The notes beneath the pieces were generated by a model. That model did not search any database, had not been told where the DNA came from, and saw only the letters and a program-made list of their open reading frames with translations. From the IMG/VR virus record IMGVR_UViG_3300037876_000116, positions 92,520 through 156,519 of that record: a stretch of DNA of 64,000 nucleotides, one strand, 5' to 3'. Position 1 is the first letter of the stretch. The number at the start of each line of letters is the position of its first letter. Positions 3,802 to 11,323 of the stretch are shown piece by piece. This DNA is from a virus. A program made the position numbers and the translations under genes.

Positions 3802-6798
3802 ATGTCAGTTAAAAAGTACAAATTTGTTTCCCCTGGAGTTTTCATTAATGAAATCGACAACTCCCAGCTACCGGACGCACCCGAACAACAAGGACCAGTA
3901 GTTATTGGTAGATCCGATTATGGTCCTGCTTTACGTCCTGTAAAAGTTAATTCTTTTTCTGAGTTTATTAGTGTATTTGGTGGACCAACTGCTACAAACA
4001 ATAAAAACGATGCATGGCGTAATGGAGATATGACTGCTCCTCTTTACTCGGTTTATGCAGCCCAAGCTTGGCTGAAAAACAATGGACCTCTTACTTTTGT
4101 TCGCTTACTTGGCGAAGCGAGCCCTGATAAAGAAAGCGGCGGAGAAGCAGGCTGGAAAACAACAAACCTTCTAGGTTCTGGCTCTGGTGGCGCTTATGGA
4201 TTGTTTGTATTCCCATCTGGGGTTCTTGCTGGACCAAAAGCAGGTGCGGCTGTTCAATTAACTGGTGCCCTTGCTGCTGCTTGGTACTTTAACAAAGGAT
4301 ATCCTCTCTTGTCTGGTACTTTGGCGGGACAATCAGGGACTATTCAACAAGGCACCGCTTCGGTTGGTACATTAGTTAAAAGCACACCCGGCGAGAAAGG
4401 GTTCACGCTTCAAATTATGGATAGCGCCGACACTTTACTTGAAAAAATATCTTTCTCATTAGAACGCGCCTCTGATAGGTTTATTAGAGACGTATTCAAC
4501 ACTAGCCCCACCAACACTAACGAATCTTTGACAACTGGCGGAAAAGATTATTTCCTCGGTCAGACTTTCGAAAGACACTATGCAGAATCCTTCGACCGAG
4601 ATGGAGTCAATGTTAACAGCGAAAGCAATGCTTATGGCGTAATATTGCCCTTGAAAACTAGTGATGGAAATTCTGATTATGCGGACAAGAGAAAAGACTA
4701 CCAATCCGCACAAACTGGCTGGTTTATTGCTCAAGACCTTCAGGCTAGACCCGAACAAACTAGCATCATGTCTTATAATCCTGTGAACTTTACAGCTTCT
4801 GCACAACAAAAGTTGTTTAAAGTGTATGCACTAGGACAAGGAAGCTGGGATTCAAGGAATCTTAAGCTATCTGTTACTAATATAAGAGCTTCTACAAACA
4901 ATTTCAATCCATACGGAACTTTCACCCTTCAGCTTAGAAAAATTGAAGACAACGACAATGCTATTCAAATTGTTGAACAATTTGATAATTGTAGTCTTAA
5001 CCCTGACGATCAAAATTACGTTGCTAAAGTTGTTGGTAACAAATACAGAGATTGGGACAATACAGAACGCCGATGGATTGAATATGGGGATTACACTAAT
5101 AATTCTAAATATATCCGTGTTGAAATGAACGGCGATGTAGATAACAAAGTTACTGATGGTAGATCTCTACCTTTCGGTGTCTTTGGACCATTAAAGTGGA
5201 AAAGCATCCAGTGGTCATCAGACGGCGCTCCTACTACTACACCTTTTAATGTAATCGACAGCGGTGGTAATAAAGTCGCAGGCGTATGGCTCCCTCAGTC
5301 AGCGTCTCTTGCTACCACCACAGCTAGACCAAAGTTCTTAACCGGATTAGGTTTGCTCGGAGTCAGCGCTTCTCTAGACGGAGGCATAGGCGACTGGCAG
5401 CAATTGGTCACAGGAACAATTAATTTCCCACAAATCTACCCTAGAGTTAGTAGTTCGGCTGGCGACACCGCAAGCCCAAGCTCCGCTTATTTCGGCGCAA
5501 ACACAAGTCGGGGAGCATCAGGATATAGCATCTATGATGATTCTACGCAAGATGTTCTTTATCCAAAGCCTGTTGGAACAAATGACTTTACGGCAGGTGA
5601 TGCAACGGAACCTAGTTGGATTTTTACTCTTGACGATGTTACAGCGCAAGCTGGAACAACAGCGGCAGGAGATATTCTTCCAAATGCAAATTGGGTTTCT
5701 GGATCTAGAGCAACAGGTAACTCTATTACAGGCTTAACTGGTACTTATCAATCTGTGCTAAACGCTGGTTTTGATTCTTTTACAACTGTTTTTGACGCAG
5801 GTTTCGACGGATTAAATATTCTTGAAAAAGAACCTTTCAACAATTCACGAGCCCTTGCTTCGTCAGTAACACAATTTTCCAGCTATGCTTATTACAGCGT
5901 CAAGAAAGCAATTGACTCAATTAGAGATTCCGAAGTTTTGGAATATAATCTTGCGGCAATTCCCGGCATGACAAACGCCTCTTTGCAAGATGAATTGATA
6001 GATGCTTGTGAAAATCGAGGAGATGCTCTGGCTATTATTGACTTGCCTAAAGTATATCTTCCATCTTTTGATGCAGGAACAGCAGGCGCAAACAGATTCG
6101 GAAATTCTCCTACACAGGCGATTTCTGATCTTAAGTCTAGAAACTTAAACTCTAGCTATGCATGCGCCTACTACCCCTGGGTTCAAATGAGAGACACAAT
6201 TAATAATGCGACTCTTTGGGCTCCGCCTTCAATTGCAGCTTTGGGAACTTTCTCTAGCTCTCAAACGAAAACACGCCTATGGTTTGCACCAGCAGGATTT
6301 AATCGCGGTGGTCTTTCAGAAGGCGCTGCTGGTATCCCTGTTATCGGCGTGAGAGAGAAGCTCACCTCGAAACAAAGAGATGAACTCTACGAAGCAAACG
6401 TTAATCCTATTGCTTCTTTCCCAGCAGAGGGGATTGTTATCTTCGGTCAGAAGACACTACAGGTAACTCCATCTGCTCTTGATAGAATTAATGTAAGAAG
6501 ACTTATGATTTTTGTTAAAAAGCAGATCTCTCAGATGGCTAACGACATTTTGTTTGACCAGAATGTTCAGGCTACTTGGAATCGCTTTGTAGCTAGAGCA
6601 AATCCATTCTTGCAAGGAATTAAGAGTGATTTCGGATTATCTGACTTTAAAGTTGTTTTGGATGAAACCACAACAACACCAGAACTAATCGATAGAAACA
6701 TTCTATATGCGAAAATCTTCCTTAAGCCTGCCCGAGCTATTGAGTACATCGCCATCGACTTCAATATTTCGAACACTGGCGCAGCTTTTGACGATTAA
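3802..6798 (+). CDS. Contractile tail sheath protein
   Basis: 998 aa; N-terminal FVSPGVFINEID; C-terminal WFAPAGFNRGGL, NPIASFP.EGIVIFGQKTL, DRINVRRL. Confidence 0.95.
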   Translation: MSVKKYKFVSPGVFINEIDNSQLPDAPEQQGPVVIGRSDYGPALRPVKVNSFSEFISVFGGPTATNNKNDAWRNGDMTAPLYSVYAAQAWLKNNGPLTFVRLLGEASPDKESGGEAGWKTTNLLGSGSGGAYGLFVFPSGVLAGPKAGAAVQLTGALAAAWYFNKGYPLLSGTLAGQSGTIQQGTASVGTLVKSTPGEKGFTLQIMDSADTLLEKISFSLERASDRFIRDVFNTSPTNTNESLTTGGKDYFLGQTFERHYAESFDRDGVNVNSESNAYGVILPLKTSDGNSDYADKRKDYQSAQTGWFIAQDLQARPEQTSIMSYNPVNFTASAQQKLFKVYALGQGSWDSRNLKLSVTNIRASTNNFNPYGTFTLQLRKIEDNDNAIQIVEQFDNCSLNPDDQNYVAKVVGNKYRDWDNTERRWIEYGDYTNNSKYIRVEMNGDVDNKVTDGRSLPFGVFGPLKWKSIQWSSDGAPTTTPFNVIDSGGNKVAGVWLPQSASLATTTARPKFLTGLGLLGVSASLDGGIGDWQQLVTGTINFPQIYPRVSSSAGDTASPSSAYFGANTSRGASGYSIYDDSTQDVLYPKPVGTNDFTAGDATEPSWIFTLDDVTAQAGTTAAGDILPNANWVSGSRATGNSITGLTGTYQSVLNAGFDSFTTVFDAGFDGLNILEKEPFNNSRALASSVTQFSSYAYYSVKKAIDSIRDSEVLEYNLAAIPGMTNASLQDELIDACENRGDALAIIDLPKVYLPSFDAGTAGANRFGNSPTQAISDLKSRNLNSSYACAYYPWVQMRDTINNATLWAPPSIAALGTFSSSQTKTRLWFAPAGFNRGGLSEGAAGIPVIGVREKLTSKQRDELYEANVNPIASFPAEGIVIFGQKTLQVTPSALDRINVRRLMIFVKKQISQMANDILFDQNVQATWNRFVARANPFLQGIKSDFGLSDFKVVLDETTTTPELIDRNILYAKIFLKPARAIEYIAIDFNISNTGAAFDD

Positions 6799-6841: not shown

Positions 6842-7411
6842 ATGGCACAGGACGGTTTTTGGGGAGGCTCGGCAGGAGCACTAGTAGATCCGAAAAGATC
6901 ATTTAGATGGCTCATTTCTTTTGGAGACAGAAGCAATGACATTAAAAGCTGGTATGCAAAAAGTGCATCTAAGCCCTCTTATCAAGTGGGAAAAACCACA
7001 CATCAATATTTGAACCATAGTTTTCACTACCCTGGTCGTGTAGAATGGCAAGAGATTTCTGTTACACTAGTAGATCCAGCCCGTGGTAATGATAGTTCTC
7101 TAGCTCTAGTTGACTCTTTGCAGCGATCTGGATATTATATTCCAATTAATGAAAACAATGCTTCTTTCACTATCACCAAGGCGGATGCAGTAAGTGCTGC
7201 CGGTAACCAAATTTTCCTTGATCAACTTGGTTCCAATCAAAGTGATATCATTGAAAGATGGACACTTTGGAATCCGTGGATTAAAGACGTTAATTTCGGA
7301 TCATTAGATTATGCGACTGAAGACATGGTACAAATTGAGTTAACACTTGTTTATGACTATGCTACAATTACAGCGGGAGTCCCAACACAGACTCTCCCCA
7401 AATCAGTTTAA
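6842..7411 (+). CDS. Tail tube protein (T4 gp19-like)
   Basis: 189 aa after the sheath; DPKRSFRW, YPGRVEWQEISVTLVDP, WIKDVNFGSLDY, LTLVYDYA. Confidence 0.85.
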   Translation: MAQDGFWGGSAGALVDPKRSFRWLISFGDRSNDIKSWYAKSASKPSYQVGKTTHQYLNHSFHYPGRVEWQEISVTLVDPARGNDSSLALVDSLQRSGYYIPINENNASFTITKADAVSAAGNQIFLDQLGSNQSDIIERWTLWNPWIKDVNFGSLDYATEDMVQIELTLVYDYATITAGVPTQTLPKSV

Positions 7412-7436: not shown

Positions 7437-8312
7437 ATGTCAAGAAACGATTCTCGTCTCGGAGGAAAAAACACTTCCTCTGGAGACGCCAATACACCTG
7501 TGGCTGAAGTTGAAGATACAACAAACAACACTACTCAGCCACTGTCCTTTTCAATCCCTACTGAGCAAGTAGAACTTCCTTCTCAAGGAAGATATTATTC
7601 AGAGAGCCACCCTCTTTACAACGCAGAAACTATTGAAATAAAATACATGACTGCAAAAGAAGAGGACATACTCACTTCTCCAAGTCTTTTGAAAAAGAAC
7701 TTAACCATCGAAAGACTTCTAAGGAGCGTTATCCTAAATAAGAACATTAACCCACAAGACTTATTATCAGGCGACCGTAATGCAATCCTTATTGCTGCAA
7801 GAAAAACAGGGTATGGAGCAGATTACAATGTTACTGTGAATTGTCCTTCTTGTTACACGCCTAATGAATGGGGCACCGATTTAGATGAAATTGGATGTAT
7901 GCACGGTGGCGTTGAAAGCGCTGATGGATATGATGTAGAAGATAATAACGATGGAACATTTAATATTACTTTACCCAAATGCAAGGTTACTGTTACCGCC
8001 AAGCTTCTTACCGGCAAAGACGAGAAAGAAGTAACTATCGCTGCTCAGAAAAGAAAAAAGCACAAACTTGATGAAAACAATCTTACAGAGCAGCTTCGCG
8101 CAATGATTGTTGCAGTAAATGGAAGCTCAAACCACAGAGACTTAGAGAGTTTTATTAATTTTGTCCCTGCATTTGATTCTAAATATTTGAGAAATGCTTA
8201 CTCTAAAATTATGCCTAATGTCGATATGAAGAGCGAATTTGAATGCTCTGCTTGCACATGGGTAGGAGACCTGGAGGTTCCGCTCACTGCGGAGTTTTTT
8301 TGGCCTAAGTGA
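7437..8312 (+). CDS. Tail/baseplate assembly chaperone (T4 gp26-like), short product
   Basis: 291 aa; VELPSQGRYY, MTAKEEDILT, LLSGDRNAILIAAR..GYG, two CxxC pairs; ends EFFWPK on a T7 run. Confidence 0.75.
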   Translation: MSRNDSRLGGKNTSSGDANTPVAEVEDTTNNTTQPLSFSIPTEQVELPSQGRYYSESHPLYNAETIEIKYMTAKEEDILTSPSLLKKNLTIERLLRSVILNKNINPQDLLSGDRNAILIAARKTGYGADYNVTVNCPSCYTPNEWGTDLDEIGCMHGGVESADGYDVEDNNDGTFNITLPKCKVTVTAKLLTGKDEKEVTIAAQKRKKHKLDENNLTEQLRAMIVAVNGSSNHRDLESFINFVPAFDSKYLRNAYSKIMPNVDMKSEFECSACTWVGDLEVPLTAEFFWPK

Positions 8313-8484
8313 AAAATATACTGAGCAAATTTACGAAGAGATATTCCAGCTAAAATATCACGGCTCTTGGAGTTTCATAGAAGCTTACAATTTACCAATT
8401 ATCTTAAGAAGATGGTTTTTACGAAGATTGGAAAAACAATTTCTAATTGAAAAAGAGCAGATAGAAAAAGCTAGAAATAAATAA
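8296..8484 (+). CDS. Frameshift-accessed C-terminal extension of the tail assembly chaperone (+1/-2 frame)
   Basis: Open frame without ATG/GTG start: FFGLSEKYTEQIYEEIFQLKYHGSWSFIEAYNLPIILRRWFLRRLEKQFLIEKEQIEKARNK; entered at the T7 run 8295-8301; terminator follows its stop. Confidence 0.7.
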   Translation, partial: FFGLSEKYTEQIYEEIFQLKYHGSWSFIEAYNLPIILRRWFLRRLEKQFLIEKEQIEKARNK

Positions 8485-8490
8485 ATTTAG

Positions 8491-8527
8491 TGCTTTCCTG
8501 TGCAAATGGGAAAGCATTATTTTTTTT
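8491..8527 (+). terminator. Rho-independent terminator
   Basis: TGCTTTCC...GGAAAGCA 8-bp stem followed by a T-rich run. Confidence 0.75.
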
Positions 8528-8537
8528 ATATAAAAAC

Positions 8538-8545
8538 ACTAATTA
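8538..8545 (+). promoter_or_regulatory. Putative late promoter motif ACTAATTA
   Basis: Variant of the recurrent motif, just after a terminator. Confidence 0.5.
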
Positions 8546-8571
8546 ATATAACGGTATAGGGTTTTAGTACT

Positions 8572-8910
8572 ATGAATAACGAAAAAGATTTGGTTCAAGA
8601 AGAAATTATCGACCTTGGTCAGGCTAAGAGAGGTGTCTTAACTGAAACATCTCTGGCTGCATTTGGTGATCACATCAAAATGATGGTAAGCTGGATTTTT
8701 GGAGAGAATGTATTTTTTCCAAAGAAAATCAAAGGTACAAAATCTGAAGTAGATAAGTTTTTGAAAACTTTATCGAAAGAAAAGAATTACATGAAGTCTT
8801 ACAAAAAATATGGTCTAGCCGATAAAAGAACCCACGACAACAAATATAAGCTTGACAGGGCTGTTCAAGATTTCGAAAAAGAAACAAAGCTAGTGTGGCC
8901 ATTCAAATAA
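8572..8910 (+). CDS. Hypothetical protein
   Basis: 112-aa ORF between the chaperone and the tape measure gene. Confidence 0.65.
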   Translation: MNNEKDLVQEEIIDLGQAKRGVLTETSLAAFGDHIKMMVSWIFGENVFFPKKIKGTKSEVDKFLKTLSKEKNYMKSYKKYGLADKRTHDNKYKLDRAVQDFEKETKLVWPFK

Positions 8911-8923
8911 AGGAATAGTTTAG

Positions 8924-11323
8924 ATGGCTGATGAAACTACAATAGAAGACTTAAAAGCCCGCATCGCCTTGCAAGAAACAGAGATTGGGCTTTTGCGCGA
9001 AAAGAAAGAGTTTCTTGACGACGAAGCTGAATTGCAGTCATCACAGCTTGAGTTAGCTAAGAAAAAACTAGAAGAAACACGCAAGTATATCTTAGCTCAA
9101 GGCAACATTAAAGATCTAGACGAAGCTAGGCAAAAGGCTCTTATGAAAAGTCTTCAGCTTATGCAACAAGAAGTACAACAGGAAGACGCTCGGTTAAAAG
9201 CAATAAAAGCTTCTCAAAAAGCTTCTCAACAATTAAATGAGACTGCTGCATCTTACTTTAGCCAAATAACCATGATTAACGACGGCTGGAAGCAAACTGC
9301 GCTCGGAGGCTTACTACAGGCTTCTAACACCGCAAAAGGGCTTGAAGGCTCGTTTAAGGCTATGGGAACGGCAATTAAAGCGCTACCTATGAAAACATTT
9401 GCTAATATCTTGGGAGAGATAGAACAGCAAACTGTTATGATGGTTATGGGTCTTATGAATGGTGCAGCCGAACTAACCAAGGTAACCGGGCTTATAGACC
9501 AAAATTTTCAAGGTCAAATACAACAACTTGGTTCTGATTTTTCTAATATGGCTTTGGGCATTCAAGAAGCACAAGTAGTACTAAAGTCTTTGTATACTGA
9601 GTTTTCTAACTTCAGAAACTTAACTAAGTCAACACAAGAATCACTTAAAGGTACAACTATGACTCTTGTTGGGCTCGGCGTCGATGGTGGAACAGCAGTT
9701 CAATTTATGGATGATGCAATGAAGACTTTTGGTCTTAGCGCCAAGGAATCAGAAAAAGCCGCTCTAGGTATGTACGCTATTTCAAGAGACTTAAAGTTTA
9801 CAACAGAAGAGCTAATGACTGAGCTTGGAAAGTTTAAGGGTTATTTGGCTGCTTTTGATAACGGAATTGAAATATTTGAAAATCTTGCAATCGCCGCCGA
9901 CCGCGCTGGAATGGAGGTTAGTGAACTGGGGAAAGTAGTACAGCAATTTGATACTTTTGAAGGAGCAGCAAGGGCGGTTGGAAAATTAAATACTGCGTTA
10001 GGGCAAAACTACTTTGATATGCAGCGGATGATGAGCCTTAACCCTGATGAAAGAATAGAAGAAATGAGGAGCCAACTGCTCCTCGCCGCCCCTGATTTTG
10101 AAAGAATGAATTTTCAACAAAAAAGATTCTTAGCAACATCTGCTGGCTTCTCTGATGCTGGTGAACTGATGAAGTTTATGCGAGGCGAAGCTGCGGAAGG
10201 TGCTGACGACCTTAAGAAGTTTGGTATGTCACAAAAAGAAATAGAAGAAATTGCAAAAAATTCCAAAGCTCCATTGCAAGTTATGCAAGCTGCATTACAA
10301 AAATTGGCTATTGCCGCTGCACCACTAGCGAAAACTTTTGCTGACGTTGCTGTGGAAATTGCTGATTTCCTTTCTGAAAATGCCGAAGTTGTTAAATATG
10401 TAGTTTTAACTGCCCTGGGATTCAAAGCATTAACAGGCGCAATTAAAACATTTACTGGTCCATTTAAAGAAGTTAAAGATCTTATGACGGTTGCAGGAGC
10501 CGCAGGAACCACCGCCCAAGCCGCTGCTAATGTTAAGTTAGCAGCAAGCTATCAGGCTTTAGCACCAGCAGCCGCTGCCGCAGCGGGTCCGCTAAACGCC
10601 ATAACCATACCAATGGCTATAATCGCTGTATCAATAGCAGTGGTTGTTATAGCGCTGGCTGACTTGGTTAAGCACGCCATCGACGCAAACGTGCCTTTAT
10701 TGGAAGTAGCAGGTGCTTTCGCTATCCTGGCTGGTAGTGTGGGTCTTCTGGCTCTTGCTTTCGCCTCCGTCGCCGCTGGCTCACCAGTCTCGGCAATAGG
10801 CATTGCAATCGTCGCCGCCGCTATTCTGTCTCTTGGTCTTGCTTTGGCTTTTGTTTCGACGGATGATTTACAAGCCTTAGCAACTATCTTTCAGAGCATG
10901 GCGAAGACCGCCGCAACAAATCCTTTTGGAAGCTGGATAAGCGGGATAAAAGAATTTGCTAAAGAAGCAGATAACTTAAAATCAGATTTATCAACAATTG
11001 GGCAAGCTATCAATCAATTAGAAATGGATGCTGCGAAAGCACAGCCAGCTATCCAATTTGTTACAGCAATAAGTAAAATTGACGATCAAAGCGTTCAAGG
11101 TCTTACACAAGCAAAAGAACTTGTAACTCAATTAAACGCAGGAGTTAACGTTGAAACAGTAAAAGCAATTCAAGAATTAATAAAATCTGTTAATGCATCC
11201 ACAGCGCAAGCCGCGACCCCAACCAGTGATCGTCCAGTAGAAATAAAGTTAGATGGCAAAGTATTGGGCAGGTTTGTGGGTGGAGTCGTGAAGAAAGGCG
11301 TAAATTCCCCACGGATAGCATAA
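8924..11323 (+). CDS. Tail tape measure protein
   Basis: 799 aa, helical and Ala-rich with hydrophobic stretches, C-terminal IKLDGKVLGR; position downstream of the chaperone. Confidence 0.85.
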   Translation: MADETTIEDLKARIALQETEIGLLREKKEFLDDEAELQSSQLELAKKKLEETRKYILAQGNIKDLDEARQKALMKSLQLMQQEVQQEDARLKAIKASQKASQQLNETAASYFSQITMINDGWKQTALGGLLQASNTAKGLEGSFKAMGTAIKALPMKTFANILGEIEQQTVMMVMGLMNGAAELTKVTGLIDQNFQGQIQQLGSDFSNMALGIQEAQVVLKSLYTEFSNFRNLTKSTQESLKGTTMTLVGLGVDGGTAVQFMDDAMKTFGLSAKESEKAALGMYAISRDLKFTTEELMTELGKFKGYLAAFDNGIEIFENLAIAADRAGMEVSELGKVVQQFDTFEGAARAVGKLNTALGQNYFDMQRMMSLNPDERIEEMRSQLLLAAPDFERMNFQQKRFLATSAGFSDAGELMKFMRGEAAEGADDLKKFGMSQKEIEEIAKNSKAPLQVMQAALQKLAIAAAPLAKTFADVAVEIADFLSENAEVVKYVVLTALGFKALTGAIKTFTGPFKEVKDLMTVAGAAGTTAQAAANVKLAASYQALAPAAAAAAGPLNAITIPMAIIAVSIAVVVIALADLVKHAIDANVPLLEVAGAFAILAGSVGLLALAFASVAAGSPVSAIGIAIVAAAILSLGLALAFVSTDDLQALATIFQSMAKTAATNPFGSWISGIKEFAKEADNLKSDLSTIGQAINQLEMDAAKAQPAIQFVTAISKIDDQSVQGLTQAKELVTQLNAGVNVETVKAIQELIKSVNASTAQAATPTSDRPVEIKLDGKVLGRFVGGVVKKGVNSPRIA

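Follow-up and report, generated by a model that had tools for sequence, protein, structure and literature searches.

The gene of a tail assembly chaperone in the 64,000-nucleotide stretch of DNA from a marine phage analysed here (positions 92,520 to 156,519 of the IMG/VR record IMGVR_UViG_3300037876_000116; the whole stretch is called below the window, and positions are counted from its first letter) appears to yield two proteins, i.e., a short form read entirely in frame 0 and a long form reached by recoding into the +1 frame close to the gene's 3' end. Judged by sequence comparison, this recoding is strongly supported, since the site and the extension encoded behind it are both conserved, the codon periodicity switches at the run of T residues that forms the site, and long forms encoded in frame are found only as a second paralogue. 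The long form probably arises when the P-site tRNA of the ribosome slips +1 on UUU/CUU_U, a mechanism to which we assign a probability of about 0.65.

The putative shift site and its conservation

Frame 0 of the chaperone gene closes with GAG TTT TTT TGG CCT AAG TGA at 8292-8312, the run consisting of exactly seven T residues (T7; Table 1). This feature and the following properties of the reading frames had been reported in an earlier note on this DNA, and all of them were found again. The -1 frame is shut at once (GTT TTT TTG GCC TAA, four codons and then a stop), read-through of the TGA would give K-I-Y before the next stop, and the +1 frame is open for 62 codons (8296-8481, the two Phe codons counted) up to a stop at 8482-8484, with a translation running FFGLSEKY...ARNK. 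This frame holds no ATG or GTG, its sole TTG stands at codon 46, and the listing of open reading frames (ORFs) contains none of at least 40 amino acids (aa) starting there with ATG, GTG or TTG; a terminator-like hairpin of 14 pairs with T8 lies directly past the +1 stop, at 8488-8519. The chance of an open stretch of 62 codons is about 0.013, as estimated with the shuffled window. The predicted long form, 7437-8300 joined to 8302-8484, comprises 348 aa (P0005).

The seven T residues are genuine and no sequencing error, since independent assemblies agree on them. Two seawater metagenome contigs from two other studies, X2 (1380 nt, 7460-8839) and X4 (441 nt, 7919-8359), span the run and show neither a difference nor a gap, so that the homopolymer error envisaged in the earlier note was not borne out.

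The IMG/VR scan retrieved 80 loci with 36-60% protein identity, giving 81 sequences with the window, 74 distinct +1 contexts and 72 distinct full-length sequences. Conservation of the T run, which the earlier note had proposed to check, is evident among them: the 12 bases at the site read TTTTTTTGGCCT in 66 of the 81 sequences, TTTCTTTGGCCT in six, TTCTTTTGGCCT in three, TTTTTTTACCCT in two and TTTTTTTTTCCT in one, and three loci (L043, L044 and L046; two distinct sequences) carry the broken run TTCTTCTGGCCT together with the extension in the other frame. Within the 74 contexts TT_T and GGCCT are invariant, and the A-site codon is TGG in 72, the others having UAC or UUU. The P-site codon starts only with T (92%) or C (8%), the two Phe codons end in T in 96% and 100% of the contexts, respectively, and a T never stands directly before the run. 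Since TTT accounts for only 67% of the Phe codons of the window, and GAT for 58% of its Asp codons, the bases of the run appear to be constrained at the nucleotide and not at the amino acid level.

At the run itself, the pattern of conserved and variable codon positions changes over from frame 0 to frame +1; together with the invariant GGCCT, this result agrees with the paired conservation of FFW(P) in frame 0 and FFG(L) in frame +1 on a T run, for which the earlier note had suggested looking. No stop occurs in the +1 frame within 55 codons in any of the 72 relatives, the mean numbers of stops in frame 0 and frame -1 being 5.5 and 3.4, respectively, and the frame-0 stop of the relatives lies 3-8 codons past the W codon. 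Nine loci have interrupted runs (TTTCTTT or TTCTTTT) and keep the full extension. Conservation at the nucleotide level extends over an island of 40 nt around the site, as seen from contigs of divergent phages aligned to 8268-8312. These contigs, which come from the same metagenomes, match the window at 90% or above only at 8268-8312, i.e., the region of the slip site, and at 7632-7663, which encodes the motif KYMTAKEEDIL; such short conserved islands can seed chimeric assemblies.

The extension and the phages with two genes

Alignment of the 72 extensions revealed the conserved motif FFGL..Y....IF.L.Y..GG.SF.E.YNLP..LR.F, and a search of 1.84 billion proteins with the extension profile gave 1538 cluster representatives (E<=1e-3). 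Of the top 150 matches, about 140 are 'ORFs' of 56-132 aa in which the match begins a few residues in, and these ORFs are the extension alone, called from a spurious start. The slip signal is common to hundreds of related uncultured phages and is overlooked by gene callers, as the earlier note had supposed for the site in the window. The fusion is annotated in none of the GenBank records examined, those of jumbo phages included; the extension stands there as a separate hypothetical ORF or is omitted. In the cultured phages Mel-JY01, immuto, SP-15, GXN1, HSE3 and LIS04 (loci L001, L002 and L005-L008, respectively) a +1 extension follows a gene annotated as 'baseplate hub subunit'; the hosts of these phages are Microcystis, Flavobacterium, Bacillus, Streptococcus and Listeria.

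Eight of the top 150 matches are long proteins whose C-terminal part is the extension, six of them full-length (293-318 aa) and two being fragments of 237 and 171 aa. A word-indexed search for longer proteins with the extension had found none, and they were detected later by the exhaustive profile search. Each of the three long-form loci checked possesses two tandem PF12322 genes. The first, short gene ends in FFWPDAGV, FFWPSLGEIN or FMWPNVS before its stop codon; the run has decayed there (TTCTTTTGGCCG, TTCTTCTGGCCA, TTTATGTGGCCA), the +1 frame is closed, and W-P is kept with CCG or CCA as the Pro codon. The second, long gene carries the extension in frame, with FFGI, IFGL or VFGI at the junction. 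Phages that lack the slip site thus have, like T4, a pair of genes, and the pure T run with the CCT codon for Pro is, as far as these sequences indicate, retained only where a single gene must yield both products. In its spacing, the FFG junction predicted for the +1 product equals that of the natural long forms (xFFG), and the extension is evidently, on the strength of these comparisons, part of a fusion and not a separate gene.

Proposed shift mechanism and its alternatives

According to the mechanism that we favour, most ribosomes would read FFWPK and stop at 8310. A small fraction would halt while tRNA-Phe occupies UUU (8298-8300) in the P site and the A site holds the Trp codon UGG; this tRNA would then re-pair one base forward, on UUU 8299-8301, and decoding would resume at GGC CUA... 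for 60 codons, resulting in the 348-aa long form, which would consist of the shared N domain and a C-terminal extension of three helices. The slip would probably be aided by the weak E-site UUU and by the GC-rich duplex or hairpin 8279-8293 abutting the E site, comparable to the Shine-Dalgarno (SD) sequence inside prfB. At the prfB site, CUU and UUU are codons from which a +1 slip onto UUU is known (PMC10885494), weak E-site pairing favours +1 shifting (PMC6321510), and a hairpin adjoining the E site stimulates +1 and attenuates -1 frameshifting by E. coli 70S ribosomes in vitro (PMC6321510). Judged from the protein family, the gene position and the examples of lambda G/GT and T4 gp26/gp51, the short and long forms should act jointly on the tape measure protein in tube assembly; the shared N domain would hold this protein, and the extension would recruit another tail component.

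A ribosomal +1 slip is favoured for four reasons. The sole invariant element of the site is YUU_U (Y = U/C), a known type of +1 slip site, and the loci with interrupted runs keep full extensions; distant relatives with UUU_C or CCC_N, which are P-site slip codons, have +1 extensions; the register of the run tracks the direction of the shift; and the hairpin often lies upstream in the +1 group but downstream in the -1 group.

The third reason comes from eight jumbo-phage relatives, RAS14, XacN1, Atu_ph07, PA5oct, pEa_SNUABM_47, RaK2, PBECO4 and XaC1 (L009, L101-L107), in which a homologous extension stands in the -1 frame and the run is in the register U_UUU_UUY. In this set the run lies a few codons before the stop and is followed by a conserved extension of 55-80 aa, and the codon before it always ends in T, so that the register is that of the canonical -1 heptamer; a hairpin follows downstream in seven of the eight, most being without upstream structure. 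The register predicts the direction of the shift in 8/8 cases of -1 and in 74/74 of +1, and the absence of T before the +1 run may be explained by the fact that a T there would create the -1 heptamer U_UUU_UUU. The distant +1 relatives SP-15, LIS04, HSE3, GXN1, L095-L100 and L003, which are phages of Firmicutes plus a huge uncultured phage, have no long run and carry UUU_C or CCC_N instead. When the proteins of RAS14 and HSE3 served as seeds for scans of IMG/VR, 0 and 6 loci were retrieved, respectively.

A separate arrangement was observed at L043 (2205-2330), L044 and L046, where the slip run is lost (AAT TTC TTC TGG CCT) and about seven extra bases follow GGCCTTCC. The homologous extension (PVDPEYKP...) lies there in the -1 frame, the +1 frame shuts after eight codons, and the only candidate site in this clade is UCC_CGG_UAG, at which a P-site -1 slip would take place at the stop codon.

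We tentatively extend the proposal, holding it somewhat short of an even chance, to the gp26-type genes at large. One and the same Phe-Phe U run would serve either direction, U_UUU_UUY with a downstream hairpin leading to -1 in jumbo phages and (not U)UUU_YUU_UGG with an upstream GC-rich hairpin leading to +1 in a very large group of marine and freshwater myoviruses. The latter would be an undescribed ribosomal +1 frameshift signal, aided by a hairpin, that needs no stop codon and, with more than 1500 protein clusters, one of the largest sets of bacterial-type +1 sites after prfB.

The region upstream of the run was compared in the window and its relatives. The 22 nt before the run of the window have a minimum free energy (MFE) of -8.4 kcal/mol, better than all control windows in the same gene. 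In 34 of the 74 relatives a hairpin, its sequence varying among them, ends 0-5 nt (mode 3) ahead of the run, and the upstream MFE of the relatives is lower than that of shuffled sequences (Wilcoxon p=0.0019). The GC content of the 22 nt before the run is 55% in the +1 group vs 35% for the gene, and that at third codon positions (GC3) reaches 0.46-0.92 in the ten codons before the Phe-Phe pair at a baseline of 0.2-0.35. The SD-like motifs pointed out in the earlier note, GGAGG at 8273-8277 and GGAG at 8291-8294, do exist in the window, where GGAG, one codon and then the P-site codon reproduce the spacing of prfB, but they are not kept in the relatives, only 14 of 74 having G at -10; it is the GC-rich stretch, often forming a hairpin, that recurs where the SD-like motif does not. 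Downstream of the site no stimulatory structure was found (z=0.09 in the window; mean z=-0.42). The role of the hairpin is nevertheless a matter of inference, because there is no common register and its stability comes largely from base composition.

A number of observations weigh against the mechanism as drawn above. The hairpin is not universal, as -4 kcal/mol or better is attained in 34/74 relatives and 16/74 (about a fifth) fold at 0.0 kcal/mol upstream; no fixed hairpin register fits all relatives, and the stability owes much to the local GC content. A hairpin followed by U7 is, furthermore, also the layout of the polymerase slippage that deletes one base in Roseiflexus IS630. The A-site codon is an ordinary sense codon (UGG makes up 1.37% and GGC 1.86% of the window codons), so that the pause driving the +1 slip is assumed. 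The two contigs of the seawater metatranscriptome library X20, the only RNA run with this phage, are identical to parts of the chaperone gene and cover 7587-7751 and 7824-7974, and the slip site lies outside this cover. As for the extension, alignment of its profile with T4 gp51 by hhalign did place it on the expected region 224-244, but at an insignificant E=0.63, and 2 of the 72 extensions match phrog_634, so that homology to the C-end of gp51 is weakly supported. The predicted complex of the tube protein with the extension scored 0.00, which gives no verdict and was counted neither way. The X20 library may contain DNA, and the identity of its contigs does not prove transcription of the chaperone gene.

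The same upstream hairpin is what makes transcriptional slippage the best of the alternatives, albeit an unlikely one. The nascent hairpin 8279-8293 would realign RNA polymerase on T7, and a few per cent of mRNAs with U6 would be translated to the long form. Consistent with such an event, a GC-rich hairpin lies 0-5 nt before U7 in 34/74 relatives (1 nt in the window, at -8.4 kcal/mol) with the GC3 peak just upstream, T7 is retained in 66/81 sequences, and the Roseiflexus element shows the same layout of a 5'-adjacent hairpin, one base being lost there at U5C5 (PMC5009743). However, the nine loci with interrupted runs and the clades of Firmicute phages with UUU_C or CCC_N keep the +1 extension without a slippery homopolymer, and about a fifth of the relatives lack the hairpin. 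Six of the eight -1 sites, moreover, have only T6. The register predicts whether the shift is +1 or -1, and the polymerase is blind to register, although the conserved Phe-Phe pair partly fixes the register by itself.

A ribosomal -2 shift, as documented for the Mu chaperone pair (PMC5009743), was left open in the earlier note as the counterpart of +1. Comparison of the relatives backs the entry into the common +1/-2 frame; between the two routes +1 is preferred, which falls short of proof, and -2 seems to us very improbable. Slipping back two bases, the P-site tRNA-Phe would re-pair perfectly on T7, and the product would read ...EFFF-GLSEK with one extra Phe. The natural long forms, in contrast, have xFFG or xIFG, i.e., the spacing of the +1 product without an extra residue; in the variants TTC TTT TGG the tRNA would have to re-pair on UCU; and the known -2 sites need special stimulators, while a downstream structure is missing here.

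It is hardly credible that no recoding takes place at all, T7 being an assembly error within a single ORF or the +1 ORF a small gene with its own start: the extension is indeed called as a separate ORF in most of the top matches and labelled hypothetical protein in GenBank records, but T7 is the same in independent assemblies and in 66 loci, the +1 frame of the window offers no start except the TTG at codon 46, its conservation starts precisely with the run, and long forms encoded in frame are found only alongside a separate short paralogue.

Known systems and genomic setting

By sequence, the product of 7437-8312 is assigned to the T4 gp26/gp51 family, and not to lambda G-type proteins, with which the earlier note had compared it. 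It matches the Pfam family PF12322 (T4_baseplate) with 47 bits at a cut-off of 24.5 over profile positions 9-218 of 219, and phrog_150 ('baseplate hub') at 2.7e-14. AF2 models of the short form of the window and of the natural long-form relative P0100 have pLDDT values of 89 and 90, respectively, the extension of the latter being folded as three helices. The P0100 model has 64 BFVD matches (E<=0.001), annotated as baseplate hub or hub assembly proteins, including the baseplate hub subunit of SP-15 and a 'baseplate hub assembly protein, T4-like'. No solved relative of the chaperone was found in the PDB, either with Foldseek on structures or with phmmer on PDB sequences, and blastn of the chaperone locus against GenBank phages gave no match.

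Both gp26 (208 aa) and gp51 (249 aa) of T4 match PF12322 end to end, gp51 having about 48 extra C-terminal residues. According to two papers that cite it, the work of Vladimirov, Gautam and Davidson 2022 (Virology) presents gp26 and gp51 as the separately encoded short and long chaperones of T4. The likeness to the present case lies in the family, in the short form ending in an FF motif and in the long form carrying a C-terminal extension of about 50-60 aa; the difference is that T4 possesses two separate, divergently transcribed genes, whereas here there is one gene with a putative +1 shift. One citing paper also states that poly-T slips in 'TAC-N genes of T4-like phages' were described in 2022 as -1 signals, and for this reason part of our observations may already be published.

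The lambda G/GT pair, with its -1 frameshift (Levin 1993; Xu 2004, 2013, 2014; summarised in PMC5009743), is similar in several respects: its gene is situated a short way upstream of that for the tape measure protein, the N domain is common to both products, the frame changes a few codons ahead of the stop, and the signal has stayed conserved although the proteins resemble each other little. Unlike the gene considered here, it belongs to another protein family and shifts -1 at G_GGA_AAG, the present site being UUU_UUU_UGG with a predicted +1 shift. Shifts other than -1 are described for the chaperones of HSTV-2 (+1) and Mu (-2), and the tail shaft gene of Listeria phages PSA/A118/A500 uses +1 at CCC_UGA (PMC5009743). 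In these cases, too, P-site slippage into the +1 frame leads to a longer tail-related protein, but the families and sites are different, and PSA employs a stop codon or pseudoknot where the present site combines a run of U with a sense codon and a hairpin upstream.

The closest parallel in the anatomy of the site is prfB (release factor 2, RF2; CUU_UGA with an upstream SD), which shares the P-site re-pairing from CUU/UUU onto UUU and the duplex abutting the E-site codon. Here, on the contrary, the A site holds the sense codon UGG and there is no stop, hence no feedback by RF2; the SD-like motif is not conserved, and an mRNA hairpin appears to replace the SD in many relatives. The Roseiflexus IS630 element (Penno 2015, described in PMC5009743) likewise has a GC-rich hairpin directly 5' of a U-rich run and enters the +1 frame by a net loss of one base; that event is, however, due to the polymerase at U5C5, whereas the interrupted runs and the register rule favour the ribosome in our case.

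As far as we have checked, a +1 signal in the gp26/gp51 family and an anatomy like that of prfB without a stop codon appear to be new, as do the frequent upstream hairpin and the use of a Phe-Phe run in either direction according to its register. To our knowledge, only a few programmed +1 frameshifts are on record for bacteria and phages, with prfB predominant among them, and the known ones rely on a stop or a rare codon. The proposed mechanism, if true, would provide many natural +1 sites at which the A site holds a sense codon, along with natural controls in the form of the two-gene phages without the run and the relatives in which this run serves for -1. With these sites one could learn what governs the direction and the rate of a shift, the upstream duplex, the weakness of the E-site codon and the codon in the A site included. 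A simple rule would allow annotation pipelines to correct the mis-annotated extension, and the requirement for two forms of the chaperone in the gp26/gp51 family would be extended well beyond T4.

Table 1. Positions in the window of the chaperone gene, the elements of the putative shift site and the neighbouring tail genes
Feature	Position	Strand	Basis
Tail sheath gene	3802..6798	+	phrog_23 4.3e-69; Pfam Phage_sheath_1C
Tail tube protein gene	6842..7411	+	phrog_4542 tail tube 1.4e-23
Short form, tail assembly chaperone (291 aa, P0001), ending ...AEFFWPK	7437..8312	+	PF12322; phrog_150; AF2
Predicted hairpin UCCGC-UCACU-GCGGA, 1 nt before the U run, in a GC-rich stretch, overlapping GGAG 8291-8294	8279..8293	+	
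Predicted shift site, U7 run; E-site UUU 8295-8297, P-site UUU 8298-8300, extra U 8301	8295..8301	+	
Frame-0 A-site codon UGG (Trp); first +1 codon GGC at 8302-8304	8301..8303	+	
Predicted +1-frame extension, 60 codons and stop	8302..8484	+	
Frame-0 stop TGA of the short form	8310..8312	+	
Intrinsic terminator-like hairpin (14 pairs) with T8, right after the +1 stop	8488..8529	+	
Tape measure protein gene	8924..11323	+	phrog_167 tail length tape measure 8.2e-10

The genes are arranged in the window in the order sheath, tube, chaperone, a 112-aa ORF and tape measure, and the same order of tail genes is found in Mel-JY01, immuto, SP-15 and HSE3; the place between the tube and tape measure genes is the usual site of tail assembly chaperones. 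The terminator-like hairpin splits the sheath-tube-chaperone unit from the tape measure gene, and, given this position, the output of the chaperone may follow the levels of the tube and sheath rather than those of the tape measure protein. Past this terminator and ahead of the tape measure gene stands the 112-aa ORF (8572-8910), for which neither Pfam nor PHROG gave a match; small ORFs occupy the matching place between chaperone and tape measure in the four cultured phages just named.

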